Shown: positions 2,967 to 30,751 of the stretch, one piece after another
Layout: each line of letters begins with the position of its first letter
Numbering within the stretch: the first letter of the stretch is position 1
Made by a program: the position numbers and the translations under genes
Notes under the pieces: model-generated
What the model was told of the DNA's origin: nothing
Databases searched by the model: none
Seen by the model: the letters and a program-made list of their open reading frames with translations, nothing else
Sequence record: DRR378314_35
DNA length: 41,928 nucleotides
Direction: 5' to 3' (one strand)

Positions 2967-3048
2967 TGTCATATCGAGCGCAGTCGAGATGCGTTTCAAT
3001 CTTTTGATGGAGCTTGCCTTGAGCGAAGTCGAAAGGCTCAAGATGACA
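2967..3048. repeat. REP/REPIN-like palindromic element
   Basis: Terminal imperfect inverted repeat TGTCATATCGAGC (2967-2979) / GCTCAAGATGACA (3036-3048); internal direct repeat GAGCG(C/A)AGTCGA at 2976 and 3021; GC-rich within an AT-rich spacer. Confidence 0.7.
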
Positions 3049-3087
3049 ACACATCAATTCAATATTAAAATCAAAAATCGAACAGTC

Positions 3088-3798
3088 ATGAAAAAATTAA
3101 TCATCACCGTATTTGTGGGATTGGCAACACTATCCCTAACTGCACAAAAAATCATCGAGAAAAATTTCAATTACTCCGGACAATCCATCGATTTAGATGT
3201 AAAATTTGCCAACAACATCGAGGTAAAAACCTGGGATAAATCAACCGTTTATTTTAAGGCAGATATCACTATTGAAGACGAGAAGTATTTGGATAAATAC
3301 AAACTTGATATTGATGAAAGTTCCAGCTCCCTGAACATTGCTTCCAATGTTGAGGATGTTTTTGATGCTTTTAAGGAGGAATGGGACAAAACCAGACCCA
3401 ATAAAAAGGGGTACTATTTTTCGGATGACACCTACGAGTTCAATTATGTCCTATACGTTCCCAAAAACGCAACGTTCAAAGTGAGCAGCATAAACGGTGA
3501 CCTAAGGGCCGAAGTTATTGAAGGGGATTTTACCGCAGATTTAATCAATGGTGACATCGACATCAAAAAATATGACGGTGACATGGACCTACGGACCATC
3601 AATGGTGAAATAGATTTGGTATTAAAGAATACGAGACTGGTTGCCGAGACCATACATGGCAATATTTACGCTGATCAAGGTATGGACCTTAACGTAAGTG
3701 ACCGCTACGTTGGCCAAAAAGTAGAGGGCAGATTTGACAATGCAACCCATCGATTAAAACTCAACACGATAAACGGAAATATGTACCTCCGTCTCTAG
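3088..3798 (+). CDS. Secreted DUF4097-family beta-strand repeat protein
   Basis: Start reassigned to ATG 3088 (MKKLIITVFVGLATLSLTA|Q); repeats SINGDL, LINGDI, TINGEI, TINGNM. Confidence 0.8.
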   Translation: MKKLIITVFVGLATLSLTAQKIIEKNFNYSGQSIDLDVKFANNIEVKTWDKSTVYFKADITIEDEKYLDKYKLDIDESSSSLNIASNVEDVFDAFKEEWDKTRPNKKGYYFSDDTYEFNYVLYVPKNATFKVSSINGDLRAEVIEGDFTADLINGDIDIKKYDGDMDLRTINGEIDLVLKNTRLVAETIHGNIYADQGMDLNVSDRYVGQKVEGRFDNATHRLKLNTINGNMYLRL

Positions 3799-4187
3799 AT
3801 CAGATTGGAAACAAAAGAATAGAGCAATAAGGCCCAACCTGCGACCAAAAGCAGACCTCCAATTGGGGTAACTGGGCCTAAAAACCGTGGCTTATTGCCT
3901 TTTGCCGCACCCAAACAAAGGGCATAAATGCTAAAGGAGAACAATAAAGTTCCGAAAATAAAGCTATTCACTATCCAAGCATCCAATGGTTTGTCGAAGC
4001 TTAAATTAAAGCCCAGAACCAAAAGTACGATAGCGTGATACATTTGATATTTGACCCCTGTCTCAAAACTTTGTAACAGTTCGGGGGTCAATTTCTTTTT
4101 TAAGGCATGGGCTCCAAAAGCACCAAATATTACAGCCAATAATCCGTACAAGGCTCCCATAAGCTGGGCCATAAAAATTGTTCCCAT
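3795..4187 (-). CDS. DUF423 (YgdD/TMEM256-like) membrane protein
   Basis: GAFGAHAL, FETGVKYQMYHA, LFSFSIY, GPVTPIGG signatures. Confidence 0.9.
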   Translation of the reverse strand: MGTIFMAQLMGALYGLLAVIFGAFGAHALKKKLTPELLQSFETGVKYQMYHAIVLLVLGFNLSFDKPLDAWIVNSFIFGTLLFSFSIYALCLGAAKGNKPRFLGPVTPIGGLLLVAGWALLLYSFVSNLI

Positions 4188-10190: not shown

Positions 10191-10592
10191 ATGAATAAAA
10201 TAGTTATCATAGGGATATCCCTGCTGTTATTGCTTCAGAGCTCCAACGTCCATTTTAAGGATTTGGTGGAGCTTGGACAATTGGTGGAGCACTACCAATT
10301 CCACAATAAGGAATATGGTGATAACTTTATGGTTTTTGTATCCAAGCACTACGGAGAGCTCAAAGCTTCCCACAGTGAAAAACACCAAGAGGAGAAAAAA
10401 GAGCACGAAAAACTTCCATTTCAACATCATCAAGCCCCCTGCGCACAACCATTGGTCTTTGTGCTGGGGCAGGAAAACTTTATTAATTCTTATTCGGAAA
10501 TTCCTTTGGCCTCCAAAGGGAATTTTCACTATCAAATGTCTTACTCCCTCATTTGGGGAGACGACCCATTCCAACCGCCCAAAAACGCATAA
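10191..10592 (+). CDS. His-rich secreted/membrane leader protein upstream of czcA, ending FQPPKNA
   Basis: N-terminal hydrophobic signal; EHYQFH, KHYG, HSEKH, HEKLPFQHH; C-terminal QPP. Confidence 0.8.
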   Translation: MNKIVIIGISLLLLLQSSNVHFKDLVELGQLVEHYQFHNKEYGDNFMVFVSKHYGELKASHSEKHQEEKKEHEKLPFQHHQAPCAQPLVFVLGQENFINSYSEIPLASKGNFHYQMSYSLIWGDDPFQPPKNA

Positions 10593-10674
10593 TTCATAGT
10601 ATTTCGGGTTTGTTGAACACCTTTTAGCAAGCCTAACTCCATTTTAATAATGCTATCATTTTCTATGAATCATG
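10588..10674 (+). promoter_or_regulatory. Structured intercistronic RNA predicted to sequester the czcA AUG
   Basis: CATAATTCATAG (10588-10599) is complementary at 11/12 positions to CTATGAATCATG (10663-10674); nested 12-bp stem 10606-10617/10623-10634 with G-U pairs. Confidence 0.55.
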
Positions 10675-13600
10675 TTTTCAAAAATTATAAGTTTTAGTAT
10701 AAGGAACAAATTCATTGTTCTACTCTTTACAGCTGCTATAGCCCTGGTCGGGTTGTACTCGCTATCACAAATACCTATCGGGGCCGTTCCCGATGTTACC
10801 AACAACCAAGTTCAGGTTATTACAACCTCAAGGAGCCTCTCTACCCAGGATATGGAAAAATTTGTGACCTATCCAGTAGAATTGGAAATGGCAAATTTAC
10901 CGGGCGTTAAGGAAATCCGTTCCGTGTCCAAGTTTGGCCTTTCGGTGGTCACCATCGTTTTTGAGGACGATATGGGCACCTTTTTGCCACGGCAGCTCAT
11001 AGCCGAAAAAATAAAATCCGCATCCAGCCGAATCCCTGAAGGATTTGGAAGCCCTGAGATGGGACCCATCACAACGGGCTTGGGAGAAATCTATCAATAT
11101 ATTCTAGATGTAGTACCCGAATATAAAGATCAGTATTCCCCTATGGAGCTACGAACTATTCAAGACTGGATTGTAAAACGTCAGCTTTCAGGTATTCCTG
11201 GCGTGGTCGAGGTCAATACTTGGGGTGGACACTTAAAGCAATACGAGGTGGCTATCCAGACCCAAAAATTGAACGCCTTCAACATTACCGCTAAAGAAGT
11301 GTTCACCGCTTTAGAAAAAAACAATAGCGTTACCGGTGGTGGTTATATTGAAAAAGTAAACCAAGCCTATTTTATTCGTGGTGAAGGGTTGGTAAGCAGC
11401 CTAAAGGATATCGAAAATATAGTGGTAACTACCCGAAACAGTATCCCTATTTATATTAAGGATGTGGCCAAAGTTGGTTTTGGCAGTGCACCACGGTTTG
11501 GAGCCATTACTGGTAATGGAGAAGGCGAAAAAGTGCTCGGGCAGATTATGATGCTAAAAGATGCCGATTCCAAACGGGTAATAGAAGCCGTAAAAGAAAG
11601 GGTTGCCGCCATTTCCAAATCATTGCCCGAAGGCGTTTATATTAATCCGTTTTTGGACCGTAGTGAACTCATTGGAAGGACAACATTCACCGTAACCGAG
11701 AACTTGGTCTTGGGGTGCTTGATCGTCATTTTTGTGGTGGTCTTGCTCTTGGGCAACTGGCGTTCGGGCCTTGTAGTGGCATCGGTAATTCCACTATGTT
11801 TGCTGTTCGCACTGACCTTGATGAACCTTTTTGGTGTGGATGCCAACTTGTTGAGCCTTGGTGCGATTGATTTCGGTATCATTATAGATGGTGCGGTCAT
11901 TATTGTGGAATACATTGCTTTCCAAATTACCCAAAAGAAAGGACAGCTTGCCAATCTGGGAAAAAATGAAACGCAAGCCATCAAGGATACCATAACATTG
12001 GAAGGTGCCACGAAAATGATGAACTCCGCAGTCTTTGGGCAGCTTATCATCTTGATTGTCTTCATCCCTATTCTTTCACTGAGCGGTGTGGAGGGCAAAA
12101 TGTTTAAGCCTATGGCCTTGACGTTTAGCTTTGCCTTGTTAGGGGCAATTCTTTTGTGTTTTACTTATGTGCCCGTTGCATCGGCCATGTTCCTGAAGCC
12201 ATCCAAAGAATCTGCAAAAAGTATCTCCACACGTTTGGTCAACTGGATCAATAAGCAATATGGGCCTGTCATCGAATGGGCCATGAAGAGTAAAAAATTG
12301 GTGCTTTCATTAGCGGCCGCATTGTTGGTTGGAGCTGTTTTACTGTTCTCTTCCATGGGAGGTGAATTTGTACCCACATTGGATGAAGGTGACTTTGTAA
12401 TACAACCTGTATTGAAAACGGGCACCTCTTTGTCTAAAACAGTGGAAACTACCACGAAAATCGAACAGATATTAATAGATCAATTTCCCGAAGTAAAACA
12501 GGTAGTAAGTCGTATTGGTGCCGCGGAAGTACCAACGGACCCCATGTCCATGGAAGAAAGCGACGTAATCATTTCACTTATACCAAAAAGTGAATGGACA
12601 TCTGCCGAGACCAAGGACGAACTAGCGGATAAGTTCAAGCAAGCCCTATCAGTAATCCCAGGGATGGAGGTGGAATTTACCCAGCCCATTGAAATGCGAT
12701 TCAATGAATTGATTACCGGGGTAAGGGCCGATATTGCCATCAAAATCTTTGGTGAAAATCTGGAAACCTTGAACAAAAAGGCCAACGAAATCAAAGATCT
12801 CATCCAAAATGTGGAGGGAGCCTCCGATATTGTTGTGGAAAAAGTGGAAGGTCTTCCGCAAATGAACGTTTCCTTTGACAGGGCCAAAATTGCCCGCCAC
12901 GGACTCAACATAGCCGACCTCAACGAAATGATTTCCATGGGATTCGCAGGAAAAGTGGTTGGTAGTGTATTTGAGGGCGAGCGACAGTTTGATTTGGCCG
13001 TTCGTTTGGATTCCGAGAACCGTCAAGATATTTCTAACTTAAAAAACCTTTATGTGGATATTCCCAACGGTGGAAAAATTCCAATGAGCGAACTGGCCGA
13101 TATCACCTACCAAAAAGGTGCGGCAAAAATCTCTCGTGACGATACAAAAAGAAGAATCGTTATCGGTATCAACGTAAGGAACCGAGACCTTCAATCTGTG
13201 GTGGACGACGTGCAACTCTTGGTCAACGAAAACATCACATTACCCCCGGGCTACACCATCACCTATGGTGGTCAGTTTGAAAATCTTCAAAATGCGAAAG
13301 CCAGATTAATGGTTGCCGTACCCATTGCCTTGTTGCTCATCTTTATCATGCTCTATTTTGCTTTTGGTTCGGTGAAAGAAGCTTTGCTCATTTTCTCGGC
13401 CATTCCATTATCTGCCGTTGGAGGTGTGCTTTTGCTTTGGTTACGGGATATGCCATTTAGCATTTCTGCCGGGGTCGGCTTTATCGCCCTTTTTGGTATT
13501 GCAGTACTAAATGGAATTGTATTGATCGAACATTTCAAAGAACTCAAGGGAAATGATTTTGATTCGATGGAAAACCTCATCAAACAGGGAACCAAAGATA

Positions 13601-15018
13601 GGCTCCGTGCCGTATTACTGACCGCCTCTGCAGCTGCCCTAGGTTTCTTGCCCATGGCGGTATCCACAAACGCGGGTGCCGAAGTACAACGACCGCTTGC
13701 TACCGTCGTCATCGGTGGATTGGTAACGGCAACGATGCTCACCTTGGTGGTTTTGCCCGTGTTATATACGTATTCACACAATATTAAGTTTCGTGGGATG
13801 AGAAAAAGAAGAAAAGACCGTAAAGCGAACAAGAGCGCTTTGACCATTATGCTAATCTTGATGGCCACGCCAGGATTTTCGCAAACTAAATTGAATCTCG
13901 AAGATTTAATGGCGCTTGCCCTTGAAAACAATAAGGGAATCCAAGCAGAATCCTTACTGGTAGATCAGGCAGAAACCCTTAAAGGAACTGCTTTTGAGTT
14001 TGATAAAACAGATATTTACTACCAATATGATGAAAACAATTTGGCATTGAACGGAGAACCGCTCAAGGTTTTTGGTGCGCAACAACAGTTTGAGTTCCCT
14101 ACGGTGTATGGAGCAAAAAATAGGCTTCAAAAATCGAACTATGAGCTTCAAAAATCATCGTTCGAAATAAAAAAGAAGCAACTGTACCAAAGCTTGAGCA
14201 TGGCCTACTATCAATACCAGACCTTGAACCAAAAAGCAAGGCTTTACGCTTCGCTGGACAGTATTTACAGCAAATTTGCGCACGCAGCCGACCGACGTTT
14301 TGAACTCGGGGAGACCAATTATCTGGAAAAGGTGACAGCCACGGCCAAACAACGGCAAATTGCCAACACCTATTCCAAGATACAGCAGCAACTACTCACC
14401 ACCTATAATCAGATTGTGAGTTTGGTGCAAAGTGAGGACACCTTGGAAATTGTGGATGAAGAAACACAAAAACTTAGGGTGTTGAATGCGGAAGGAATGT
14501 TGGAAACGGAAACTTCCTTTTTGGACAACCGCCAAGAACTGAGCAATGCCCAAAAGAGTCTGGAGGAAAATAGATTGCTGCCCGACCTGAACCTGGAGTA
14601 TTTTCAAGGGACCAACAAGGGCTTGGGAACATCGCTCTACGGTATTCAGCTGGGTGTTCGTATTCCCCTTTTCTTCTTTGGGCACAGTAGCAAGGTGAAA
14701 TCGTCCAAGATCCAGACCAAGATCACGGAGATGCAGAATACCGAAATTACTGTTGCGATGAACCAGCGTTACAAAACCTTGTTGGGACAATTGGAACAAC
14801 AGGCCAAGGAACTGTCCTATTACGAAGATGAAGGCGGTCATCTTTCCGATCAAATTTTGAAAGCGGCCTCTGGAAACTTTCAAAATGGGGAAATCGACTT
14901 TTTCCAATACATTCAAAGTTTGGAAAATGCGTACGAGATCCAACTCAATTATCTGGATGTGCTCAACGAATACAATCAAACTGTAATCGCCATTAACTAC
15001 TTGACAATAACATTATAA
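10672..15018 (+). CDS. czcA: CusA/CzcA-family heavy-metal RND permease fused to C-terminal TolC-like outer-membrane factor
   Basis: AVPDVTNNQVQV, GPITTGLGEI, DFGIIIDGAVIIVE (CzcA-type), GAEVQRPLATVVIGG; residues ~1071-1448 have OEP repeats (RFELGETNYLE, FQNGEIDFFQY). Confidence 0.93.
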   Translation: MFSKIISFSIRNKFIVLLFTAAIALVGLYSLSQIPIGAVPDVTNNQVQVITTSRSLSTQDMEKFVTYPVELEMANLPGVKEIRSVSKFGLSVVTIVFEDDMGTFLPRQLIAEKIKSASSRIPEGFGSPEMGPITTGLGEIYQYILDVVPEYKDQYSPMELRTIQDWIVKRQLSGIPGVVEVNTWGGHLKQYEVAIQTQKLNAFNITAKEVFTALEKNNSVTGGGYIEKVNQAYFIRGEGLVSSLKDIENIVVTTRNSIPIYIKDVAKVGFGSAPRFGAITGNGEGEKVLGQIMMLKDADSKRVIEAVKERVAAISKSLPEGVYINPFLDRSELIGRTTFTVTENLVLGCLIVIFVVVLLLGNWRSGLVVASVIPLCLLFALTLMNLFGVDANLLSLGAIDFGIIIDGAVIIVEYIAFQITQKKGQLANLGKNETQAIKDTITLEGATKMMNSAVFGQLIILIVFIPILSLSGVEGKMFKPMALTFSFALLGAILLCFTYVPVASAMFLKPSKESAKSISTRLVNWINKQYGPVIEWAMKSKKLVLSLAAALLVGAVLLFSSMGGEFVPTLDEGDFVIQPVLKTGTSLSKTVETTTKIEQILIDQFPEVKQVVSRIGAAEVPTDPMSMEESDVIISLIPKSEWTSAETKDELADKFKQALSVIPGMEVEFTQPIEMRFNELITGVRADIAIKIFGENLETLNKKANEIKDLIQNVEGASDIVVEKVEGLPQMNVSFDRAKIARHGLNIADLNEMISMGFAGKVVGSVFEGERQFDLAVRLDSENRQDISNLKNLYVDIPNGGKIPMSELADITYQKGAAKISRDDTKRRIVIGINVRNRDLQSVVDDVQLLVNENITLPPGYTITYGGQFENLQNAKARLMVAVPIALLLIFIMLYFAFGSVKEALLIFSAIPLSAVGGVLLLWLRDMPFSISAGVGFIALFGIAVLNGIVLIEHFKELKGNDFDSMENLIKQGTKDRLRAVLLTASAAALGFLPMAVSTNAGAEVQRPLATVVIGGLVTATMLTLVVLPVLYTYSHNIKFRGMRKRRKDRKANKSALTIMLILMATPGFSQTKLNLEDLMALALENNKGIQAESLLVDQAETLKGTAFEFDKTDIYYQYDENNLALNGEPLKVFGAQQQFEFPTVYGAKNRLQKSNYELQKSSFEIKKKQLYQSLSMAYYQYQTLNQKARLYASLDSIYSKFAHAADRRFELGETNYLEKVTATAKQRQIANTYSKIQQQLLTTYNQIVSLVQSEDTLEIVDEETQKLRVLNAEGMLETETSFLDNRQELSNAQKSLEENRLLPDLNLEYFQGTNKGLGTSLYGIQLGVRIPLFFFGHSSKVKSSKIQTKITEMQNTEITVAMNQRYKTLLGQLEQQAKELSYYEDEGGHLSDQILKAASGNFQNGEIDFFQYIQSLENAYEIQLNYLDVLNEYNQTVIAINYLTITL

Positions 15019-15020
15019 CA

Positions 15021-16148
15021 ATGAAAAATATACTTCAAATAGCCGCTGTTTTCCTTCTATTGATGGGCTGTGGCAATAAAAACAACAAAGAATCAGCCTC
15101 TGAAGGGCAAGGAGAAGAAACAGGAATCGTGGTCACGCAAGAGCAATTCGACACCAATGATCTCACTGTTGGTCCAATGGAAAAAAGAACTTTCCCCAAA
15201 ATGGTGGAGACTTCTGGAATGATAGATGTGCCCCCCGAAAACCGAGCTAGCGTTATGGCCTTTATGGGCGGTTTTGTGAAACAGACGTCGCTGTTGGTTG
15301 GTGACAAAGTAAAAAAAGGACAGCTTTTGGTGGTTTTGGAAAATCAGGAGTTTTTGAAGATGCAGCAAGAATATATGGAGGTTTTCAATCAGTTGGATTA
15401 TTTAAAAGCAGAATTTGAACGAAACGAAACGCTTTTTGAAGAGAAAATAGCCTCGCAAAAGAACTTTCTTCAGGCCAAGAGCAATTATGAAACAGCCAAG
15501 GCACGTTACCAAGGCTTGCAGGAGCAATTGCAAATGCTTAACATTTCTCCTAGCAAGGTGGAACAAGGGAATATTTCGTCGCAAGCCGCCATTTATGCCC
15601 CTATTTCGGGAAGCATCACAAAAATGAACGTTGCCAAAGGAAGTTATGTTTCCTCCGCTACCGAGATTTTGGAGATTGTGAGCAATGAGCATGTGCACTT
15701 GGAACTCACCGTTTTTGAAAAGGATATCCTAAAGGTGAAGAAGGGACAAAAAATACAATTTAGGATTACTGAAGCCTCCGAAGAAGCATTTAATGGTGAA
15801 GTTTACTTGGTGGGCACCTCTATTGACGATGCCAAAAGATCTATTAAAGTACACGGGCATCTGGAACATGAGGAAGAGGCGAACTTCCTGCCCGGTATGT
15901 TCGTAGATGCCAAGATTATGACGGACACCATCAAAACCCTCTCTTTGCCGGAAGAAGCAGTAATTGAATCCGAGGGGACTTCCTACGTGTTGAAATTGGT
16001 AAATAAACAAGGTGCAGGCTATACTTTTGAACGTATCGCCGTTAAACAAGGTAATACCTATGATGGTTATACCGAAATCATCTCAACAGAATTGAACAAA
16101 ACCGATCAGTTTTTGACCAAAGGTGTTTTTGATTTGATCGGGGGATAG
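15021..16148 (+). CDS. Efflux RND periplasmic adaptor (CzcB-like lipoprotein)
   Basis: Lipobox LMGC; lipoyl halves GDKVKKGQLL and IYAPISG around a coiled-coil hairpin. Confidence 0.92.
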   Translation: MKNILQIAAVFLLLMGCGNKNNKESASEGQGEETGIVVTQEQFDTNDLTVGPMEKRTFPKMVETSGMIDVPPENRASVMAFMGGFVKQTSLLVGDKVKKGQLLVVLENQEFLKMQQEYMEVFNQLDYLKAEFERNETLFEEKIASQKNFLQAKSNYETAKARYQGLQEQLQMLNISPSKVEQGNISSQAAIYAPISGSITKMNVAKGSYVSSATEILEIVSNEHVHLELTVFEKDILKVKKGQKIQFRITEASEEAFNGEVYLVGTSIDDAKRSIKVHGHLEHEEEANFLPGMFVDAKIMTDTIKTLSLPEEAVIESEGTSYVLKLVNKQGAGYTFERIAVKQGNTYDGYTEIISTELNKTDQFLTKGVFDLIGG

Positions 16149-16151
16149 CAT

Positions 16152-16973
16152 TTACCCCAGTCCTACATCCAGTGTCATCATAATTATAAATCCACCGATA
16201 AAACCCATAGTGGCGATATCGGTGTATTTGTCTTGTTGGGTCTCGGGAATCACCTCCTCGACCACTACAAAAATCATGGCACCCGCGGCAAACGAAAGGG
16301 CATAAGGAAGAATGGGCTCAAAAGTAAGAACTGCCCAAGCCCCCAATACCCCTGCAATGGGTTCTACCAAGGCCGAGGCCTGACCGTACATCCAACTTTT
16401 TCTTCTACTGAGACCATGCCTACGCATAGGTACGGCAACGGCAAAACCTTCTGGAAAGTTTTGCAAACCGATACCCAAGGCCAAAGCTACAGCACCACCA
16501 ATGGTTGCGCCCTCAAAGCCAGAAGCTACACCCCCAAATAGGACACCTACCGCCAATCCTTCGGGAATATTGTGCAAGGTAATGGCCAAGACCAGTAGCG
16601 TGGTGCGGTGCCAGGGCGTCTTTACCCCTTCTGCTTCGTCCATTTTAAAATTGATGTGCAAATGGGGTAAAATTTTATCAAGCCCAAAAATAAAGGCAGC
16701 ACCCATTAAAAAGCCGACAGCTGCTGGAATCACCTTAACAAAACCGTCGCCGGGACTCATTTCAATGCCTGGTGCCAAAAGACTCCAAAAACTGGCGGCG
16801 ACCATAACACCTCCCGTAAAGCCCAACATTCCATCCAACAAGGCCCGATTTGGATTTTTGAACAAAAAAACCAGACCTGCCCCGGCAGCAGTCAACCCCC
16901 ATGTAAAAAGCGTCGCATACAACGCGGCCAATACCGGGTCTATTTCTTGAAAATAATGAATTACTTGTTCCAT
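16152..16973 (-). CDS. ZIP family (ZupT/GufA-like) divalent metal importer
   Basis: ITLHNIPEG and LQNFPEG metal-site motifs; AAGAMIFVVVEEVIPE. Confidence 0.93.
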   Translation of the reverse strand: MEQVIHYFQEIDPVLAALYATLFTWGLTAAGAGLVFLFKNPNRALLDGMLGFTGGVMVAASFWSLLAPGIEMSPGDGFVKVIPAAVGFLMGAAFIFGLDKILPHLHINFKMDEAEGVKTPWHRTTLLVLAITLHNIPEGLAVGVLFGGVASGFEGATIGGAVALALGIGLQNFPEGFAVAVPMRRHGLSRRKSWMYGQASALVEPIAGVLGAWAVLTFEPILPYALSFAAGAMIFVVVEEVIPETQQDKYTDIATMGFIGGFIIMMTLDVGLG

Positions 16974-17629
16974 TAATCGTTCTTTTTTACGTAAAGGTTA
17001 GACGCTATTTGATGTGATATCCGCATTTCCTTGCCCTCCATTTGAATACGCAGGGAATTATCAAAATCTTCTTTGTCCATTACTTTGATTGTGTTTCCCA
17101 AGGCAATATTGTTTTTATCCAAGAATTTGAGAAAGGGTACAGAGGAATCCTTAACCCCAACACATACTCCTTTGGAATTGATGGCCATTTCGCTGAGCAA
17201 TTTTTCATCACGCTCTTGGAACTTTCCATCCTTGGTGGGAATTGGATCGCCGTGAGGGTCATATTTGGGGAAATTCAGGAGTTCATCAATCTTGTCAACC
17301 AATTTTTCACTTTTAATGTGCTCCAATTGCTCGGCCACCTCATGTACCTCATCCCAGGTAAAATCTAATTTTTCCACTAAGAAAACCTCCCATAATCGGT
17401 GCTTTCTAATAATGGACAAAGCTGTTTTCACCCCTGCATCGGTCAATGAAATGCCTTGGTACCGGACATAATCCACCAATCCTTTTTCCGATAATTTCTT
17501 GGCCATGTCGGTTACGGAAGATGGTTTTGTTTCCATTTGCTCCGCAATAGCATTGGTAGTTATGGACTTGGAATCGCCACCACCTAAATGAAAAATTGTC
17601 TTTAAATAATTCTCCTCCGATCTAGTCAT
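16973..17629 (-). CDS. mntR: DtxR/MntR-family metal-dependent transcriptional regulator with C-terminal FeoA-like domain
   Basis: Start ATG 17629: MTRSEENYLKTIF; RKHRLWEVFL; EAEQLEH-like EVAEQLEH; DPHGDPIP; stop overlaps the ZIP start (TAATG). Confidence 0.9.
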   Translation of the reverse strand: MTRSEENYLKTIFHLGGGDSKSITTNAIAEQMETKPSSVTDMAKKLSEKGLVDYVRYQGISLTDAGVKTALSIIRKHRLWEVFLVEKLDFTWDEVHEVAEQLEHIKSEKLVDKIDELLNFPKYDPHGDPIPTKDGKFQERDEKLLSEMAINSKGVCVGVKDSSVPFLKFLDKNNIALGNTIKVMDKEDFDNSLRIQMEGKEMRISHQIASNLYVKKND

Positions 17630-17673
17630 CAAAAAATATTTTTCCAAAAATACATTTTTATTTAACAAAATCT

Positions 17674-17695
17674 ATTTTTAGTTTTGTCTAAATTT
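17674..17695. promoter_or_regulatory. Putative DtxR/MntR operator in divergent promoter
   Basis: TTTAG-N6-CTAAA palindrome (17677-17692) between mntR and the TonB receptor. Confidence 0.6.
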
Positions 17696-17708
17696 AATTT
17701 TACATACA

Positions 17709-19979
17709 TTGAAAATAATTTGTAGGCATATCGTCTTTTTGTTGCTTGGTTTTATAAGCATCTGTTCTTTTGGGCAAACAGCTTCCTTAAACGGGAAGGT
17801 TACGGACAATGGAGAACCATTGCCGCTGGCAAATATGCAGCTCAAAGGAACAGAAATGGGAGCCGCCACGGATATTGATGGTTTATTTGAGTTGAACAAC
17901 ATTCAGCCAGGCGACTATGTAGTATTGGTGACTTCTTTGGGGTATCAACCGTATCAAACCAAAATCAATATTGAGGCGGGAGCCAATAAAACCATCAATG
18001 TACAACTAGAGCCGTCCGCACAAAGTTTGGATGAAACCGTGGTCACGGGCACCCTAAAACCCGTGAGCCGATTGGAAAGTCCGGTTCCCGTGGAAGTCTA
18101 CTCCCCCACTTTTCTAAAAAAGAATCCTACGGCGAGTGTTTTTGATGCGCTCCAGAATGTGAACGGGGTGCGTCCGCAAATCAATTGCAATGTGTGCAAC
18201 ACGGGAGATATTCACATCAACGGATTAGAGGGACCATATACTTTGGTTCTTATCGACGGGATGCCGATTGTTAGTGGTTTGGGTACAGTCTATGGCCTCA
18301 CAGGGATTCCTAACTCTCTGATCGAACAGATTGAAATTGTAAAAGGTCCTGCATCCTCACTTTATGGTAGTGAAGCTGTGGGCGGTTTGATCAATATCAT
18401 TACCAAAAATGCTTTGAGCGCTCCCGAATTTTTTGCCGATGGCTTTGCCACGGGTTGGGGCGAGTACAATTTGGATGTGGGAAGCAAAATTTCGGTTGGA
18501 GACAAAACAAACCTGCTTTTGGGACTCAACTACTTTAATTATGACGTTCCCATAGACAATAATGACGACAATTTTACCGATTTGACGCTACAAGATCGTA
18601 TATCCATTTTTCAAAAGTGGGATTTTGAGCGAAGTAATAACCGTTTGTTCTCTTTGGCTGGACGCTTTTTTTATGAGGACCGTTGGGGTGGCGAAATGCA
18701 ATGGACACCGGAGTTTCGTGGTGGCGATGAAATTTATGGCGAAAGCATCTATACCCGAAGATGGGAAGTGCTCGGAAAATATCAGTTACCGTTTGAAGAA
18801 AAATTGCTCCTATCTTTTTCTTATAACGACCACAACCAAAACTCGGTATATGGTGACACCGAATATTTGGCCGACCAGCGTATTGGCTTTGCGCAATTGA
18901 CATGGGACAAAACCGCGGGCAATCACGATTTGCTGTTCGGGAGTGCGGTTCGTTATAATTATTATGACGACAACACCCCTGCGACCACTGAGGCCGATAA
19001 TATTTGGATTCCGAGCTTTTTTGCCCAGGATGAATACAAATTTGCCGCCAAACACTCCTTTTTGGCCGGGCTTCGGTATGATTACGATCAACGACACGGC
19101 AATATTTTAACTCCCCGGGCCGCTTACAAATGGAAGGTTTCCAAAAACGATATTTTTCGGGTGAACGCTGGAACGGGATTTCGCGTAGTCAATTTGTTTA
19201 CCGAAGATCACGCTGCCCTCACAGGTGCAAGGGATGTTGTGATTGCCGAAGAGCTGAAACCCGAACGGTCAGTTAATGTCAATATCAACTATTTGAAGAA
19301 GATTTATAGTGATAATGGCACCTTTATCGGACTCGATGCTTCGGCGTTCTACACTAGATTTTCCAACGTAATCTTGCCTGATTACGAAACCAATCCCAAC
19401 CAAATCATTTATGATAATCTGGATGGAAAATCAGTTTCGCAAGGGCTTAGTGCCAATTTGGATGTTGCTTTTCCCAGCAGTTTCAAGATTATGGTGGGCG
19501 CCACTTGGCAAGATGTGAGCAGCACTGAAAATGGGGTGACCCAGCAGCAAATCCTTACCGAAAGCATTACCGCTACGTGGAATTTGTCGTACACCTTTCA
19601 CTCGTTAAAATTGACAGCGGACTACACGGGAAATTTATATGGCCCTATGCGATTGCCGCTTTTAGGCGAACTGGACCCAAGACGGGAATATTCCCCTACG
19701 TGGAGTATTCAGAACATCCAGTTTACCTACAAAGGACTGAACAATTTTGAAGTGTACGGAGGAATCAAAAACCTGTTGGATTGGACGCCGAACCGGGGCA
19801 ATCCTTTTATCATCGCCAGAGCCAACGACCCTTTTGACAAAGACGTAACCTTTGACAGTTCTGGTAATGCCGTGGCTACACCGAACAATCCCTACGCCCT
19901 TACTTTTGACCCCGCCTACGTGTATGGGCCCAACCAAGGCATTCGAGGGTTCTTTGGGTTGCGGTATACGGTTTTTTAA
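17709..19979 (+). CDS. TonB-dependent receptor (probable metal uptake) with N-terminal CarboxypepD_reg-like domain
   Basis: Signal SFG|Q; LDETVVTG TonB-box-like; plug IEQIEIVKGPASSLYGSEAVGGLINIIT; CNVC motif; C-terminal Phe. Confidence 0.92.
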   Translation: MKIICRHIVFLLLGFISICSFGQTASLNGKVTDNGEPLPLANMQLKGTEMGAATDIDGLFELNNIQPGDYVVLVTSLGYQPYQTKINIEAGANKTINVQLEPSAQSLDETVVTGTLKPVSRLESPVPVEVYSPTFLKKNPTASVFDALQNVNGVRPQINCNVCNTGDIHINGLEGPYTLVLIDGMPIVSGLGTVYGLTGIPNSLIEQIEIVKGPASSLYGSEAVGGLINIITKNALSAPEFFADGFATGWGEYNLDVGSKISVGDKTNLLLGLNYFNYDVPIDNNDDNFTDLTLQDRISIFQKWDFERSNNRLFSLAGRFFYEDRWGGEMQWTPEFRGGDEIYGESIYTRRWEVLGKYQLPFEEKLLLSFSYNDHNQNSVYGDTEYLADQRIGFAQLTWDKTAGNHDLLFGSAVRYNYYDDNTPATTEADNIWIPSFFAQDEYKFAAKHSFLAGLRYDYDQRHGNILTPRAAYKWKVSKNDIFRVNAGTGFRVVNLFTEDHAALTGARDVVIAEELKPERSVNVNINYLKKIYSDNGTFIGLDASAFYTRFSNVILPDYETNPNQIIYDNLDGKSVSQGLSANLDVAFPSSFKIMVGATWQDVSSTENGVTQQQILTESITATWNLSYTFHSLKLTADYTGNLYGPMRLPLLGELDPRREYSPTWSIQNIQFTYKGLNNFEVYGGIKNLLDWTPNRGNPFIIARANDPFDKDVTFDSSGNAVATPNNPYALTFDPAYVYGPNQGIRGFFGLRYTVF

Positions 19980-24102: not shown

Positions 24103-24708
24103 ATGAGGGAAAATATTATAAACAAAGCAACAGAAATGTTCTTAAACCTAGGGTTTAAAAGCATTACCATGGATGATTTAGCAAACGAACTAGGGATATC
24201 CAAAAAAACAATTTACTCACATTTTAGGAACAAAACGGACTTAGTGCAACAAACGGCAATGACAATGTCCGATTTTATTACCTGTGGCATAGACGATATT
24301 GTAGCATTACAAAAAAACCCTATTGAGGAGCTTTATGAGATCAAAAGATTTATAATGGTCCATTTAAAGGATGAAAAGTCGTCCCCACTTTACCAATTGC
24401 AAAAATATTATCCAAAAATCTATGCTTCTCTTAAAGATGTACAGTTTGAATGTACCCACAGATGCGTGGCCAAAAATGTAAAAAGAGGAATGGATTTGGG
24501 GATTTACCGCGATAACCTCAATGTGGAGTTTGTTTCCAGAATATACTTTACCGGGATTACCAGCATAAAGGACAATACTATGTTTCCTACGGAAATATTC
24601 AGCAAGCCCGAGCTTTTGGATTTTTACCTGGAATATCACCTAAGAGGCATCGTGACACCGAAAGGAAGAAAAATACTCAATTCAATCATCAATTCAAATC
24701 AAGAATAA
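24103..24708 (+). CDS. TetR/AcrR family transcriptional regulator
   Basis: HTH GFKSITMDDLANELGISKKTIYSHF. Confidence 0.93.
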   Translation: MRENIINKATEMFLNLGFKSITMDDLANELGISKKTIYSHFRNKTDLVQQTAMTMSDFITCGIDDIVALQKNPIEELYEIKRFIMVHLKDEKSSPLYQLQKYYPKIYASLKDVQFECTHRCVAKNVKRGMDLGIYRDNLNVEFVSRIYFTGITSIKDNTMFPTEIFSKPELLDFYLEYHLRGIVTPKGRKILNSIINSNQE

Positions 24709-26040
24709 ATGCGAAAAACGTTAATCAGTCTACTACTCATACTGCCTTGGTTGGCATCGGCACAAGACACCATACCCAGTTTTAGCTTGAACGAGGCCAT
24801 TACCTATGCTCTTGAACATAATTATAGCGCACTAAACGCAGACAGGGATATTTTGGATGCCGAAAAGCAAAAATGGGAGACCATTGCCACCGGACTACCT
24901 CAAATCAATGGCGGTGTTAGTTACCAAAATCAATTAAAACAACCTGTTTCCCAGATACCGGCCGATTTTTTTGGAGGCGAAAACGGGGATTTTGTTGAAG
25001 TGGTTTTTGGCCAGCCACAATCCATGACGGCCACCGCCACATTGACCCAACAGATTTTTGATGGATCCTACATCGTAGGCGTTCAAGCCACCAAAACATT
25101 TTTGGAGTACAGTCAAAACAATAAGGAAAAAACCGAATTGGACGTTCGTAAATCCGTTGTTGAGGCTTATGGCAATGTACTCTTGGCACAACAAAGTGTT
25201 TTAATATCCGAAAGGAACAAAGCTACATTGGAAGAGAACCTTTATGAAACCAAACTAACCTATGAAAACGGTTTAGGGGATGAAGAAAGTGTAGATCAAT
25301 TGCAAATTACACTCTCCTCGGTCGACAACTATCTCAAAAATGCGCGTCGCATGGAAGAAATTACGCTCCAAATGTTGAATCTGGTTTTAGGACTTCCCAT
25401 AGAAACGCCAACGGTATTAACCGAAAATTTGGATGACCTTACCCAAGAAAAAATAGACTTGGGCTTATTGGACGAAGAGTTCAATATTGAGAAAAACGTG
25501 GACTATAAAATGGCCGTCAACCTCAATGAGCAACGTTTCCTTGAGTTAAAATTGGCCAAAAGCCGTGCCCTGCCCACTTTGAACGCTTTTGTAAATTATG
25601 GGGGGAACTCCTTCAGCGATCGTTTCAACTTTTTGAGCAGCGGCCAGCAGTGGTTTGGCTCCTCCATTTTAGGTGTTGACCTTAATATACCCATTTTTAG
25701 TTCTTTGGGAAGGAGTGCAAGCACCCAACGTGCCAAAATTGCCTTGGAAAAAGCAAAGACCCAGTTTACCGAAACCCAAGCCCAGCTTCGTCTTCAATGG
25801 AAAAGAGCAAAGAGCGACTACACACTTGCCATCGAGGAGTACAGTACATCCAAGGATAATCTTGAACTGGCAGAGCGCATTGAAAAAAAGAATCAAATTA
25901 AATATTCCGAAGGTTTGGCCACAAGCTTTGAATTAAGACAGGCCCAAACCCAATTATATACCACTCAGCAAGAATATTTACAATCCATGGTCGATGTAAT
26001 CAATAGAAAAACCGAACTGGAAAATATTTTAAATCAATAA
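24709..26040 (+). CDS. TolC family outer membrane efflux protein
   Basis: Signal ASA|Q; LPQING/LPTLNA, YENG/YSEGLATSFE OEP repeats. Confidence 0.92.
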   Translation: MRKTLISLLLILPWLASAQDTIPSFSLNEAITYALEHNYSALNADRDILDAEKQKWETIATGLPQINGGVSYQNQLKQPVSQIPADFFGGENGDFVEVVFGQPQSMTATATLTQQIFDGSYIVGVQATKTFLEYSQNNKEKTELDVRKSVVEAYGNVLLAQQSVLISERNKATLEENLYETKLTYENGLGDEESVDQLQITLSSVDNYLKNARRMEEITLQMLNLVLGLPIETPTVLTENLDDLTQEKIDLGLLDEEFNIEKNVDYKMAVNLNEQRFLELKLAKSRALPTLNAFVNYGGNSFSDRFNFLSSGQQWFGSSILGVDLNIPIFSSLGRSASTQRAKIALEKAKTQFTETQAQLRLQWKRAKSDYTLAIEEYSTSKDNLELAERIEKKNQIKYSEGLATSFELRQAQTQLYTTQQEYLQSMVDVINRKTELENILNQ

Positions 26041-26062
26041 CAAAAGAGAAAACCATTCCATC

Positions 26063-27247
26063 ATGAAAAAAACTATATATATAATACTTACGGCTGCCGT
26101 TTTAGCGGCCTGTGGAGGCAGTGGCAACAACTCCTTGGAAGAAGTAATTGCAAGCAAGGACGTTGAGGCCATTAGGACAAAACGTAACGCCGTTACCCAA
26201 GAACTAAAAACGCTGGAAGAGCAAGTCAAAAAATTGGACGAGGCCATCTTGGAACTGGACGATAACTCCAAATTGCCTTTGGTTTCCACATTGACTGTGC
26301 AACTTAAGGAATTCCAACATTATTTGGAATTACAAGGTGACGTTGTTACCGACCAAAACGTGCTGGTGTATCCGGAAATGTCAGGTACATTGTACCGTGT
26401 TTACGTGAAAGAAGGTCAGCGAGTGTCCAAAGGTCAGCTGTTGGCCTCCATTGATGATGGTGGACTTTCCAGTCAGTTGGCACAATTAAAAACACAAGCG
26501 GAACTGGCCAAGACAACTTTTGAGCGTCAAAAAAGGCTTTGGGAACAAAATATTGGTTCAGAAATACAATATCTACAGGCCAAAACGCAATTTGAGGCAC
26601 AACAAAGTGCCGTAAAGCAATTGGAGAGCCAAGTTGGAAAATCGTCAATCCGTGCGCCTTTTTCCGGCATTGTGGACAATGTGATCAAAGATGAAGGAAC
26701 CGTGGTCAGTCCAGGTCCAGGATCCGAAGTGTTCCGAATTGTGAACCTTTCCGATATGTACATCGATGTAGAAGTGCCTGAATCCCACTTGCCCAATGTG
26801 ACCCCTGGCAAAGAGGTGGAAGCTTACTTCCCTGTATTGGGTGAAACCATCAAGACAAAAGTGCGCCAAACCGGAAACTTTATCAACCCCAGCAATCGCT
26901 CCTTTATAGCAGAGGTGCCCGTTCCCAACAAGAATGGACATATAAAACCAAACCTTACCGCTCAGGTAAAAATCAACGATTATACAAATAAAAATGCCAT
27001 TCTTATCCCACAAAGCGTTGTTTCGGAAAACGCAGAGGGCGAACAATATGTATACATTATCGACGATCAAGATGGAGAATTGATCGCAAAAAAATCCATT
27101 ATAAAACCTGGCTTGACACAAGGCGATTATTTAGAAGTCCTTGAAGGAATTTCAGCCGGGAGTCAAGTTATAGTTGAGGGAGCCCGAAGCATTAGGGACG
27201 GCCAAACCGTTAAGGTGTTGGACTCAACCACAACCGCTAAAAACTAA
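26063..27247 (+). CDS. Efflux RND periplasmic adaptor subunit
   Basis: Lipobox LAAC; VKEGQRVSKGQLL; IRAPFSGIV. Confidence 0.92.
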   Translation: MKKTIYIILTAAVLAACGGSGNNSLEEVIASKDVEAIRTKRNAVTQELKTLEEQVKKLDEAILELDDNSKLPLVSTLTVQLKEFQHYLELQGDVVTDQNVLVYPEMSGTLYRVYVKEGQRVSKGQLLASIDDGGLSSQLAQLKTQAELAKTTFERQKRLWEQNIGSEIQYLQAKTQFEAQQSAVKQLESQVGKSSIRAPFSGIVDNVIKDEGTVVSPGPGSEVFRIVNLSDMYIDVEVPESHLPNVTPGKEVEAYFPVLGETIKTKVRQTGNFINPSNRSFIAEVPVPNKNGHIKPNLTAQVKINDYTNKNAILIPQSVVSENAEGEQYVYIIDDQDGELIAKKSIIKPGLTQGDYLEVLEGISAGSQVIVEGARSIRDGQTVKVLDSTTTAKN

Positions 27248-27256
27248 CCGAGCCAA

Positions 27257-30200: not shown

Positions 30201-30751
30201 TCATGATGGCAATATTCCTGAGCTTTATTGGCGTATTTGGTGGATTGATCATTACAGGGTGGCCCTTTGTGATCATGATGACCATGATGGGAATTATTTC
30301 CTTGGCAGGTATTGTGGTGAACAATGGCGTGGTACTATTGGACTACACCCAAATCCTAATCGACCGTAAAAAAGTACAGCTTGGCCTTTCCGATGATGAG
30401 TTGTTGAACCGTGAAGATGTAAAAGAGGCCATAATTAAAGGAGGTAAAGCCCGTTTGCGCCCGGTACTGCTCACGGCAATTACAACCGTACTCGGTTTGA
30501 TTCCATTGGCCATAGGATTGAACATCAACTTTGTTAGCCTGTTCTCGGATTTTGATCCTCAAGTATATATGGGTGGTGACAATGTTATCTTCTGGGGACC
30601 ATTGGCCTGGACCGTTATTTTTGGTTTGATAGTCGCTACATTCTTAACATTGATCATTGTGCCCGTGCTTTTCAATATTAGCTACAGGCTTAAAATTAGA
30701 ATCCAAAAATGGAAGAGCAGGCATGAAACACCCGAAGTAATAACCGAATAA
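27257..30751 (+). CDS. AcrB/AcrD/AcrF-family efflux RND permease
   Basis: GMLVDNGVVVVEN, RLRPVLLTAITT, 12+ TM pattern with two large periplasmic loops. Confidence 0.93.
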   Translation: MEKAKKNANKEFRLSSWAIDNPSVVYVMIGLFFIIGLSSYFSMPREDFPEVEETKIYVSSVYPGNTAEDMERLITDPLEDVLKNISNVVEITSTSQEDYSMIIVEFDEEIAVETAKQKVKDEVDSEKAGEDWPIFNGAKVEPNVFDLNLAESFPIMNVNLTGDYPVERLKEFAEYLEDEIEDLPQIKEVDIRGAQEKEVEVAVDVYKMMASRVSFDDVIQAISNGNMTMSAGNLITSGQRRTIRIIGEIEKPSELENFVVKSENGAIYLRDIATVSYSEEDKTTYAREHGAPVVMLDIKKRSGKNTIEASDRIREVVDEAKENYLPKDLEVTIANDSSSRTLNQVDDLVNNIIFGIILVVTVLMFFLGFRNALFVGFAIPMSMFMSFMILSAIGYTLNTMILFGLIMGLGMLVDNGVVVVENVYRLMEQEGMSRKEAAKKGIGEIAIPIIISTATTVAAFVPLGTWPGIMGEFMIFFPITLSVVLGSSLFVAIFMNSMLVSQFMQIGEKELTRKQLIRLSIILGVFGLFIYFVGGPVRGLGTLLIVVAGMFWIYKYFLKPSARRFQTKSLVSLENFYEGQLKKALRGKNVYWYFGLTSLLLILSFVFFGMSLGSQRTKVEFFPDNTPNEIFVYIEYPQGTDIEKTNAITKDIEERVYGVTGRDKYTKGDFNYLVESSVSQVGKGAENPFTEGGSAAEMPHRGKITLSMREFKYRNGLDTEELRQQIQDTLSGVYPGVTISVEKDAVGPPAGYPINIEIEGQNYDTLISTAERMRNYINSKNIAGIEELKVDVNKGKPGMQVEVDRAKAGELGVSVGQVGQQLRRSIFGDKAGIYKKDGEDYDINVRFNEDIRYNTSALFNQKIIFRDPSNGQIKEIPVSAVANQKNTSSFSAIKHVDSKRVVTVYSALKPGFTDAAAIVTEIQNEMQEFKGLPEGVKIDYTGQIEEQEKQMSFLMSAFFLGLGLIMLLLIFQFGGISKPAIIMMAIFLSFIGVFGGLIITGWPFVIMMTMMGIISLAGIVVNNGVVLLDYTQILIDRKKVQLGLSDDELLNREDVKEAIIKGGKARLRPVLLTAITTVLGLIPLAIGLNINFVSLFSDFDPQVYMGGDNVIFWGPLAWTVIFGLIVATFLTLIIVPVLFNISYRLKIRIQKWKSRHETPEVITE

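Follow-up and report, generated by a model that had tools for sequence, protein, structure and literature searches.

Pump and channel in a single reading frame

Frame translation of a 41,928-nucleotide stretch of DNA from a marine flavobacterium (hereafter the window) revealed a single uninterrupted ORF of 1448 amino acids on the plus strand (10672-15018). The ORF comprises a CzcA/ZneA-type RND permease (residues 1-1042), a segment with the features of a Sec-type signal peptide (residues 1043-1070) and a 378-residue TolC-fold outer membrane factor, or OMF. When the translation was checked, the ORF, junction sequence and coordinates given in an initial annotation of the window all agreed with the DNA.

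Table 1. Features of the fusion gene and its operon neighbours, with window coordinates
Feature	Coordinates	Strand	Basis
133-aa ORF with hydrophobic N-terminus and His-rich stretches; possible CzcI-like accessory	10191..10592	+	synteny, ESM Atlas
CzcA/ZneA-type heavy-metal RND permease, residues 1-1033, to end of TM12	10672..13770	+	ACR_tran, TIGR00914
Cytoplasmic basic n-region, residues 1034-1055, YSHNIKFRGMRKRRKDRKANKS; in-frame ATG 13798 (M1043) inside	13771..13836	+	charge count
Hydrophobic core and c-region, residues 1056-1070, ALTIMLILMATPGFS; cut by signal peptidase I predicted after S1070	13837..13881	+	rule-based
Mature TolC-fold OMF, Q1071-L1448, 378 aa, 43.4 kDa; coordinates include stop codon	13882..15018	+	PF02321, AF2, Foldseek
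Periplasmic adaptor of the CzcB type, 375 aa; LMGC at residues 14-17 resembles a lipobox	15021..16148	+	HlyD_D23, TIGR01730

Several matches point to the identity of the pump part: firstly, Pfam ACR_tran covers residues 5-1033 (E 5.8e-273; model positions 1-1018 of 1021); secondly, TIGR00914 (CusA/CzcA; model length 1051) spans residues 1-1041 and scores 1147.6 bits, the cut-off being 701.45; thirdly, among solved structures ZneA (4k0e, E 2.9e-201) and CusA are the best relatives, with the alignment limited to residues 2-1034. The TM4 stretch beginning at residue 400, DFGIIIDGAVIIVEY, matches all but the final residue (Y, not N) of DFGx3DGAx3VEN, which we take to be the TM4 charge-relay motif of divalent-cation HME pumps. 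From its sequence, we would assign this part to the HME-RND permeases (CusA/CzcA; TC 2.A.6.1). A structure search with the pump returned no solved RND chain longer than ~1070 amino acids, and all fused homologues are annotated publicly as just 'CusA/CzcA family heavy metal efflux RND transporter'.

Two stretches of the OMF part match PF02321 (OEP; 70 bits, cut-off 22). An AlphaFold2 (AF2) model of residues 1034-1448 (pLDDT 84) contains two beta-hairpins, formed by four strands (80-91, 97-107, 272-281 and 289-297 in model numbering), and two helices of 69 residues each (110-178 and 303-371); the model and a count of residues from Q1071 bear out the earlier description of a 378-residue OMF with both hairpins. 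Foldseek searches with the OMF model returned SilC, TOprJ1, TolC, OprM and CusC at a probability of 1.00 (TM 0.62-0.74), and VceC likewise at 1.00. With its two repeats and its modelled TolC fold, the C-terminal part is an outer membrane factor (OEP/TolC; TC 1.B.17). Against the NodT lipoprotein model TIGR01845 it scored 21.7 bits, below the cut-off of 210.05, and a search for a lipobox cysteine near the cut site found none, the predicted mature end being Gln; it lies outside the NodT-type lipoprotein OMFs.

The genes on either side are widely retained. A homologue of the adaptor (HlyD_D23, E 7.6e-35; TIGR01730, 161.6 bits) lies directly downstream of the fusion in all 119 related loci having enough flank. 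The 133-residue ORF matches no Pfam or NCBIfam model; 91 of 117 related loci have a homologue of it immediately ahead of the pump gene. Among the named ESM Atlas clusters, CzcI (PF28244; score 0.92, 117 shared features) is the nearest to it, a weak lead towards a CzcI-like accessory protein. The fusion operon holds no separate czcC, as first reported. The window's second OMF gene (24709-26040) is an unrelated one that sits in a TetR-OMF-MFP-RND operon; BLASTP of the fused OMF against it (24709-26037) gave nothing significant (best E 0.078), and the two appear to be distant OMFs.

The pump-OMF fusion is genuine and common in Bacteroidota. Within the family, ~80 of 151 genomes hold a full-length match, and each of the 40 loci fetched is one open frame of 1435-1492 amino acids. 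Among named Flavobacteriaceae, the frame is at least 1400 amino acids long in 79 of 80 loci, the remaining one ending at a contig edge. A sample of 401 genomes from across the phylum yielded stop-free frames of at least 1437 amino acids at 148 of the 150 junction-spanning matches listed; by hand count among the matches listed, ~121 of these genomes, in at least 23 families, carry the fused form, and 51 of the ~121 fall outside the class of the window. Distant fused forms were labelled Stygiobacter, Mucilaginibacter, Chitinophagaceae, Cytophaga and Fulvivirga. We found no paper describing an RND-OMF fusion, the consulted sections of PMC8277102, PMC4827864 and PMC6281302 included.

An assembly or sequencing artefact, or a pseudo-fusion peculiar to one genome, was rejected as having next to no probability, the frame being open in 40/40 and 79/80 genomes and phylum-wide. 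Contigs from independent runs cover the junction without indels.

Signal peptide features at the junction

The junction (residues 1043-1070, MRKRRKDRKANKSALTIMLILMATPGFS) ends in ...TPGFS and is followed by Q1071 (codon CAA, 13882-13884), after which the predicted mature N-terminus continues TKLNLEDLMALALENNK. The n-region has ten K/R residues and one D/E; 16 uncharged residues lead from the last charge to the cut site, where the -3 residue is G and the -1 residue is S; and the AF2 model places a helix at 1054-1064, with low pLDDT. With its positive n-region, short uncharged h-region and small residues at -3 and -1, the linker is a candidate Sec signal peptide, the cut site having been predicted with crude signal peptidase I (SPase I) rules of our own rather than SignalP. 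A 156-nt metatranscriptome contig lies over 13829-13975 with one mismatch; its source may be RNA or carried-over DNA.

We looked up the processing machinery in the nearest genome (G001, with 80% of sampled words in common), which encodes signal peptidase I together with a glutaminyl cyclase of the plant type (PF05096, E 2.3e-92). Q1071 and this cyclase are what would be expected of a substrate of the Bacteroidetes Q-rule, as set out in the consulted part of PMC5837995. The supplement of that study includes Tanf_07615, an unfused 'OM efflux protein' from Tannerella forsythia, with a pyroglutamate N-terminus detected by mass spectrometry after ...CAMA/Q (the slash marking the cut); the supplement rows inspected contain N-terminal signal peptides only (PMC5837995). 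The initial annotation had counted at least eight secreted proteins with the same small residue/Q pattern in the window, and a rule-based scan recovered eight, in ORFs 2211, 3088, 4605(-), 6984, 17709, 24709, 31169(-) and 38024; the one at 3088 begins at an internal Met of ORF 2989-3798.

To examine the linker in homologues, we collected 155 junctions, 148 of them distinct, from four kinship tiers of Bacteroidota. An n/h/c pattern with A, S or G directly before Q, after the hydrophobic core, is kept in 152 of the 155; a lack of such conservation had been set beforehand as grounds for abandoning the idea of an internal cleavable signal. The three non-canonical junctions are those of L097 and L128 (T at -1) and of L139 (without Q). 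Of the 148 distinct junctions, 147 have an n-region with a net positive charge; the median length of the uncharged stretch is 17 residues, and position -1 is occupied by A 94 times, by S 40 times and by G 14 times. Pairwise identity averages 20-21% within the linker, as compared with 76% for TM12 and 32% for the OMF, yet the pattern persists: its physico-chemistry has been retained and its letters have not.

The Gln at +1 is specific to the junction and above chance. In 118 full-length homologues it occurs at 107 of 113 rule-positive junction sites; among the 2593 sites that pass the rule in other parts of these proteins, it occurs at 56 (2.2%). The strict SPase rule overlooked 11 of the 118 junctions, each with an evident A/Q or S/Q that looks cleavable by eye, and a 'first Q' heuristic took an earlier Q in 24 cases; the figures for the 155 junctions come from a refined rule. 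Six of 161 sequences were left out of the junction count, their anchor motifs being unmatched: five (L006, L023, L034, L037 and L040) have S/Q or A/Q in the alignment, and the sixth is the split L146. Q at +1 is also invariant in a 38-sequence alignment (A1), 17 members of which are ~400-residue proteins; such 'stand-alone' representatives (e.g. P0124, 62% identical) may be genuinely separate genes, or fused genes whose calls are truncated.

A split homologue offers a clue to the nature of the linker. At the DNA level, czcA of genome G278 ends ...TKK-TAG, and an ATG two codons on in the same frame opens an OMF with the signal peptide MKTKIIL...NIFG/Q; czcB is next. This layout indicates that the linker is a signal peptide belonging to the OMF itself.

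Proposed processing and its alternatives

We think it likely, from these sequence features, that signal peptidase I splits a 160-kDa precursor, giving a pump of 117 kDa and an OMF of 43 kDa. The 12-TM pump part would enter the inner membrane with its C-terminus left in the cytoplasm, and the basic stretch past TM12 would remain on that side. The segment ALTIMLILMA would then span the membrane N-in/C-out, passing the OMF via SecYEG to the periplasm, where a cut after ...PGFS(1070) would free it. The N-terminal Gln of the freed OMF would probably be cyclised to pyroglutamate under the Q-rule, and the OMF would move to the outer membrane and trimerise; the signal peptide, kept on the pump, would form a 13th helix. 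Pump, OMF and the separate lipoprotein adaptor could in this way assemble into an ordinary tripartite divalent-metal efflux pump. A 1:1 stoichiometry of the two products would be a consequence of the polyprotein; that it is the selective reason for the arrangement is speculation. A search for proteomic, western or N-terminal data on any fused member returned none.

The OMF could instead be translated separately, from the ATG at 13798, as a 46.7-kDa pre-OMF with an N-terminal signal peptide of its own. This ATG is in frame at the start of the n-region, 28 codons ahead of Q1071, and many close Flagellimonas/Allomuricauda relatives have one in the same place. Bacteroidota do without Shine-Dalgarno sequences, according to the part of PMC6847099 consulted, so that a ribosome-binding site cannot be demanded of it. 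Among the 148 distinct junctions, however, an ATG is missing upstream of the hydrophobic core in 88, and in 54 GTG and TTG are missing there as well; all of these junctions retain the cleavage pattern. Nor is the Met column conserved in the alignment. In Flavobacterium, A at -3 favours initiation (PMC6847099, in the part consulted); G precedes ATG 13798 at this position, whereas the starts at 10672 and 15021 have A. The 54 junctions without any of the three start codons argue that internal initiation, raised in the initial annotation as an alternative, fails as the general route, and we judge it improbable, although it may serve as a side route for the window's own gene. A corollary, that czcA lost its stop codon in a neutral change which created the fusion, with the full-length chain as a by-product, draws some support from G278, where the split layout differs little from the fused one; we hold it to be just as doubtful, and an internal start, even if used, would leave a full-length chain with a cleavable signal.

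Alternatively, the hydrophobic segment might go uncut, as a 13th transmembrane anchor tying an OMF-like domain to the pump in the periplasm. The homologue L139, which has no recognisable cut site, would fit such an arrangement. For an anchor, however, the 16 uncharged residues found here make a short stretch, one that ends in the helix-breaking TPG, and anchoring gives no reason for a small residue at -1 with a conserved Q at +1, nor is it readily squared with a complete beta-barrel-forming fold. The operon contains no other OMF gene, and the adaptor is present in 119/119 loci. Geometry speaks against a tether as well. In the AF2 model, the first OMF helix begins ~4 residues past the cut site and ~29 helical residues follow before strand 1, as compared with 69 in the long helices, which would place the OMF N-terminus in the half proximal to the outer membrane. 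In assembled AcrAB-TolC-type pumps, this half of the OMF lies far from the inner membrane. An N-terminus near the outer-membrane end and ~4 residues past an anchor would put the outer membrane out of reach. With the geometry against it and the invariant Q and small -1 residue unexplained, the tethered OMF that had been considered at the outset seems very unlikely.

A different protease, for instance an intramembrane or periplasmic one, might in principle make the separation. The small residues at -1 and -3 followed by Q at +1 are exactly the features of SPase I substrates in this phylum, and the same pattern is found on the eight ordinary N-terminal signal peptides of the window; we give this route very little weight. 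Cleavage by signal peptidase I is the reading that we carry forward.

Relation to known systems and implications

The CzcCBA, ZneCAB and CusCBA systems of Proteobacteria consist of the same trio, an RND permease, a CzcB-type adaptor and a TolC-fold OMF, and by analogy the expected function would be alike: proton-driven export of metal cations across both membranes. Those systems are encoded by three separate genes, usually in the order OMF-adaptor-pump; here, the order is pump-OMF followed by adaptor, with pump and OMF in one frame. Bacteroidota OMFs of the Tanf_07615 type likewise have a small residue before Q and their first OMF helix a few residues on, and the OMF of the split homologue in G278 has the form of these ordinary Q-rule OMFs. 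Their signal peptides are N-terminal, whereas 1042 residues of a polytopic membrane protein precede the one described here.

Internal signals behind membrane spans have precedents. In the cytochrome b-c1 polyprotein FbcH of Bradyrhizobium japonicum, an internal signal peptide is cut behind a polytopic inner-membrane protein to free a second subunit of the same complex, one that faces the periplasm; both products stay at the inner membrane, whereas the fused OMF would go to the outer membrane. Viral envelope polyproteins (e.g. bunyavirus glycoprotein precursors) share the logic of internal signal sequences behind membrane spans, cut by host signal peptidase to give equimolar products (consulted part of PMC7926653), but there eukaryotic ER machinery acts on viral proteins, whereas here the substrate would come from a cellular bacterial operon.

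We lean, if only somewhat, towards a broader view in which Bacteroidota routinely make the channel of a metal pump as the tail of the pump, bring it to SecYEG co-translationally by way of the membrane insertion of the pump itself, release it with signal peptidase I, cap it with pyroglutamate and leave a 13th helix behind. If true, this would be a polyprotein that occurs naturally in bacteria, with two products destined for different membranes at a fixed 1:1 ratio. To our knowledge, no earlier bacterial case is known in which an inner- and an outer-membrane protein of one machine are made as a single precursor and split by the general signal peptidase; if the cut occurs, this would be the first. 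RND and OMF stand at 3:3 in tripartite pumps, and cleavage here would bear on their stoichiometry. It would bear equally on co-translational Sec delivery of an outer-membrane beta-barrel protein behind a polytopic protein, and on a 13th helix in RND pumps. Annotated as CusA/CzcA transporters only, the fused genes cause OMFs to be under-counted in genome surveys of the phylum, and signal-peptide tools restricted to N-termini would overlook this class of internal-signal substrates.

The fused gene and its surroundings

The fused gene (10672..15018, +) is one open frame of 1448 amino acids, in which a CzcA-type RND permease is followed by an outer-membrane factor (OMF). Pfam ACR_tran matches residues 5-1033 (E 5.8e-273) and TIGR00914, the CusA/CzcA heavy-metal RND subfamily, matches residues 1-1041 (1147.6 bits against a cut-off of 701); the closest solved structures are ZneA (4k0e, E 2.9e-201) and CusA. 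None of the 60 PDB chains listed is a fused chain: the matches end by residue ~1052 and the chains are at most ~1070 aa long. The final pump helix (TM12) ends ...LPVLY at 1033 and leads into YSHNIKFRGMRKRRKDRKANK-SALTIMLILMATPGFS-QTKLNLEDL..., which contains firstly, an n-region with ten K/R and one D/E; secondly, 16 uncharged residues including a ten-residue hydrophobic core and a TPG break; thirdly, a predicted cut site with G at -3, S at -1 and Q1071 at +1 (codon 13882-13884). PF02321 (OEP) matches twice in the C-terminal 378 residues. An AlphaFold2 model of residues 1034-1448, built from our smaller homologue alignment (A2, 12 sequences; mean pLDDT 84), has two beta-hairpins and two 69-residue helices, and Foldseek matched it to SilC, TOprJ1, TolC, OprM, CusC, CmeC, VceC and MtrE (probability 1.00, TM 0.62-0.74). 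Every checkable detail in the initial annotation's description of fusion and junction (ORF, junction sequence, coordinates) was borne out. A 156-nt contig from sediment metatranscriptome run X5, which may be transcript or carried-over DNA, matches 13829-13975 with one mismatch.

Features around the fused gene
Feature	Position	Strand	Remarks
133-aa ORF	10191-10592	+	Upstream of fused gene; hydrophobic N-terminus, His-rich stretches
CzcB-type adaptor	15021-16148	+	TIGR01730, HlyD_D23; starts two bases past fusion stop
ZIP-family transporter; DtxR/MntR-type repressor with FeoA domain	within 16152-19979	-	Downstream of efflux operon
TonB-dependent receptor	within 16152-19979	+	N-terminal carboxypeptidase-regulatory-like domain; beyond ZIP and DtxR/MntR genes
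Second, unrelated RND operon	24103-30751	+	TetR-OMF-adaptor-RND; conventional split layout

The adaptor N-terminus MKNILQIAAVFLLLMGC... (15021-15075, +) resembles a lipoprotein signal with a lipobox-like LMGC; if this signal is real, the adaptor is probably lipid-anchored and the OMF is not. Pfam and NCBIfam profile searches placed the 133-aa ORF in no family; its nearest named ESM Atlas cluster, a weak match, is CzcI (PF28244; score 0.92, 117 shared features), and it may correspond to czcI, the small gene that precedes czcCBA. A ZIP transporter, a DtxR/MntR-type repressor and a TonB-dependent receptor, together a metal-uptake and regulation cluster, adjoin the efflux operon; the neighbourhood is one of metal homeostasis. 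The substrate is probably a divalent metal, given the likeness to ZneA/CzcA, the ZIP and DtxR-type neighbours, and the TM4 stretch DFGIIIDGAVIIVEY, which fits what we take to be the divalent-cation-pump consensus except at its last residue (Y, not N).

The claim that no separate czcC is present holds for the fused operon; the unrelated operon has an OMF of its own (443 aa, with an ordinary N-terminal signal peptide ...WLASA/Q, the slash marking the cut). The window encodes eight ordinary N-terminal signal peptides with a small residue directly before the cut and Q directly after it, in agreement with the at least eight secreted proteins first noticed. The second operon's permease is 1164 aa, ~100 aa above the usual length.

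Spread of the fusion

A protein search with the C-terminal 449 residues as query matched 5561 proteins, the best 120 of which are all fused (116 of about 1411-1452 aa and four shorter fragments). These 120 range from Flagellimonas/Muricauda/Allomuricauda out to Zobellia, Gillisia and Nonlabens, and those that are named carry the label 'CusA/CzcA family heavy metal efflux RND transporter'; an identical protein is recorded under an Allomuricauda MAG label. In a set of 151 family genomes with a single genome for each genus, a hand count gave at least about 80 full-length stop-free matches (query 1 to at least 1436). All 40 family loci retrieved are one open frame of 1435-1492 aa, and in two family rows flagged '1 TAA' the TAA is the terminal stop, with no stop inside the frame. 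In a species-representative collection, 79 of the 80 named loci, all Flavobacteriaceae by title, have a frame of at least 1400 aa; the remaining one ends at a contig end.

Using a junction-spanning query (residues 900-1250), we surveyed 401 genomes sampled across the phylum. All of the 150 matches listed span the junction; 148 fall in frames of 1437-1523 aa without a stop, another is limited by its contig, and the last contains a TAG. The matches listed come from at least about 121 genomes and at least 23 families (hand count), and by kinship they cover 24 of the 29 same-family genomes sampled, 3 further genomes in that order, 43 in that class and 51 outside it. A search started from a distant fused representative recovered fused forms labelled Stygiobacter, Mucilaginibacter, Chitinophagaceae, Cytophaga and Fulvivirga. 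Several genomes (for example G107, G127 and G071) carry two or three fused paralogues; the second one in G001, the nearest genome (L028, G001:C17:234847-239241), is 50% identical and has a longer linker ending ...GTVVA/Q. The operon layout is stable across relatives, with a CzcB homologue directly downstream in all 119 loci with enough flank and a small-ORF homologue directly upstream in 91 of 117 related loci.

Conservation of the linker

The junction set comprised 161 members, one from the window, 120 from family loci and 40 from other orders and classes. Six with unmatched anchor motifs were left out, five of which visibly end S/Q or A/Q, the sixth being the split form described below. Aligning homologous fusions had been proposed as a check for an n/h/c-Q linker, and the pattern proved to be kept: A, S or G followed by Q lies past the hydrophobic core in 152 of the 155 junctions. 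Three junctions depart from it: L097 (...NAFP-Q), L128 (with T at -1) and L139, the only junction without any Q. This last locus (L139/L162, G196:C1) encodes a fused 1457-aa homologue whose linker ...NLGIAISLLLLIPFFPLKSEIL... lacks a small-residue/Q cut site, and which may be uncleaved, cut elsewhere or decaying. At -1, the 148 distinct junctions carry A (94), S (40) or G (14). Their uncharged stretches span 11-31 residues (median 17), with 137 no longer than 22, and 147 of the n-regions carry a net positive charge.

Sequence conservation is lowest in the linker (20-21% mean pairwise identity, compared with 76% for TM12 and 32% for the OMF; 41 sequences), and a pattern kept while its sequence is lost is typical of signal peptides, not of a packed transmembrane helix. 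As a chance control, we ran one crude rule for signal peptidase I (SPase I) over 118 whole proteins: 107 of 113 positives at junctions have Q at +1, as compared to 56 of 2593 outside junctions (2.2%). In an alignment of 38 sequences, 17 of them proteins of ~400 aa, just three columns are invariant, and the Q column is among them.

A natural split form is found in G278, a genome of the same class and another family, where czcA ends ...YKTFTKK-TAG (L161, G278:C1:646300-653300, junction near locus base 4095) and, two codons past the TAG and in the same frame, an ATG opens MKTKIILSSIATIIIAIVFSPNIFG/QNTKISL.... This OMF frame has 419 codons and an N-terminal signal peptide ending FG/Q, and is followed by czcB. 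The linker is therefore the signal peptide that belongs to the OMF. One stop codon and one start codon are all that distinguishes the split layout from the fused one, and the persistence of both fits best if the mature products are the same.

Routes to a pump and an outer-membrane factor

The OMF could instead be translated from a start codon ahead of the hydrophobic core, and the window's gene does have the in-frame ATG 13798 that the initial annotation named for this. This ATG, however, has G at -3. The real starts 10672 and 15021 carry A at this position, which favours initiation in Flavobacterium johnsoniae (PMC6847099). No ATG lies ahead of the core in 88 of the 148 distinct junctions, and no ATG, GTG or TTG in 54, with the cut-site pattern still kept; the OMFs of start-codon-less junctions can be made only as part of the long chain. 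Internal initiation is thus retained only as a possible side route for the window's gene.

A permanent tether, the other alternative first raised, would leave the OMF joined to the pump, and fails on geometry in the AlphaFold2 model. The first OMF helix starts only ~4 residues past the predicted cut, and the chain reaches the first barrel strand ~29 helical residues further on, as compared to 69 in the long helices, so that the OMF N-terminus lies in the outer-membrane-proximal half of the channel. In assembled AcrAB-TolC-type pumps, entries for which are among the Foldseek matches, this point is kept away from the inner membrane by the remainder of the channel, by the adaptor ring and by the periplasmic head of the pump. 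A tether also gives no reason for keeping a small -1 residue and Q.

The most likely mechanism, and in our judgement a probable one, is that SPase I splits the precursor into pump and OMF. The cell would make a 160.3-kDa precursor, the pump would insert with its C-terminus in the cytoplasm, and the basic stretch would be kept inside while the OMF part passes through Sec behind the short hydrophobic core. Cutting after S1070 would leave the signal peptide on a 116.9-kDa pump as a 13th helix and free a 43.4-kDa OMF, which would be pyroGlu-capped, go to the outer membrane and trimerise; with the lipoprotein adaptor, the two would form a normal tripartite pump. What the analysis shows is architecture, fold and conservation; translocation, cleavage, the pyroGlu cap, the additional helix and the metal substrate are inferred. 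G001 encodes both SPase I (TIGR02227) and a plant-type glutaminyl cyclase (PF05096, E 2.3e-92). By the Q-rule, most SPase I substrates in Bacteroidota expose Gln, cyclised to pyroGlu (PMC5837995; also PMC10653852), and mass spectrometry of a stand-alone Tannerella forsythia 'OM efflux protein' found a pyroGlu N-terminus after ...CAMA/Q (PMC5837995 supplement).

The HME-RND pump, OMF and adaptor belong to well-known families shared with CzcCBA, ZneCAB and CusCBA; the fused gene departs from these systems in biogenesis and layout, which is pump::OMF-adaptor and includes an internal signal peptide. As the nearest precedent for a polyprotein that bacteria split at such a peptide, we can name FbcH, the cytochrome b-c1 precursor of Bradyrhizobium, although both of its products remain at the inner membrane, unlike the proposed pump/OMF pair. 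Viral envelope polyproteins follow the same logic and are cut by host ER signal peptidase (PMC7926653). A full-text literature search, whose coverage excludes subscription journals where a description may exist, returned no paper on an RND-OMF fusion, nor does one appear in the accessible portions of a large tripartite-pump review (PMC8277102), a survey of outer-membrane protein fusions (PMC4827864) or a Bacteroides transporter survey (PMC6281302). The comparative sequence evidence for the proposed pump-OMF polyprotein is strong, and its end product should work like CzcCBA, ZneCAB or CusCBA; such fused proteins are abundant in databases, labelled only as the pump.
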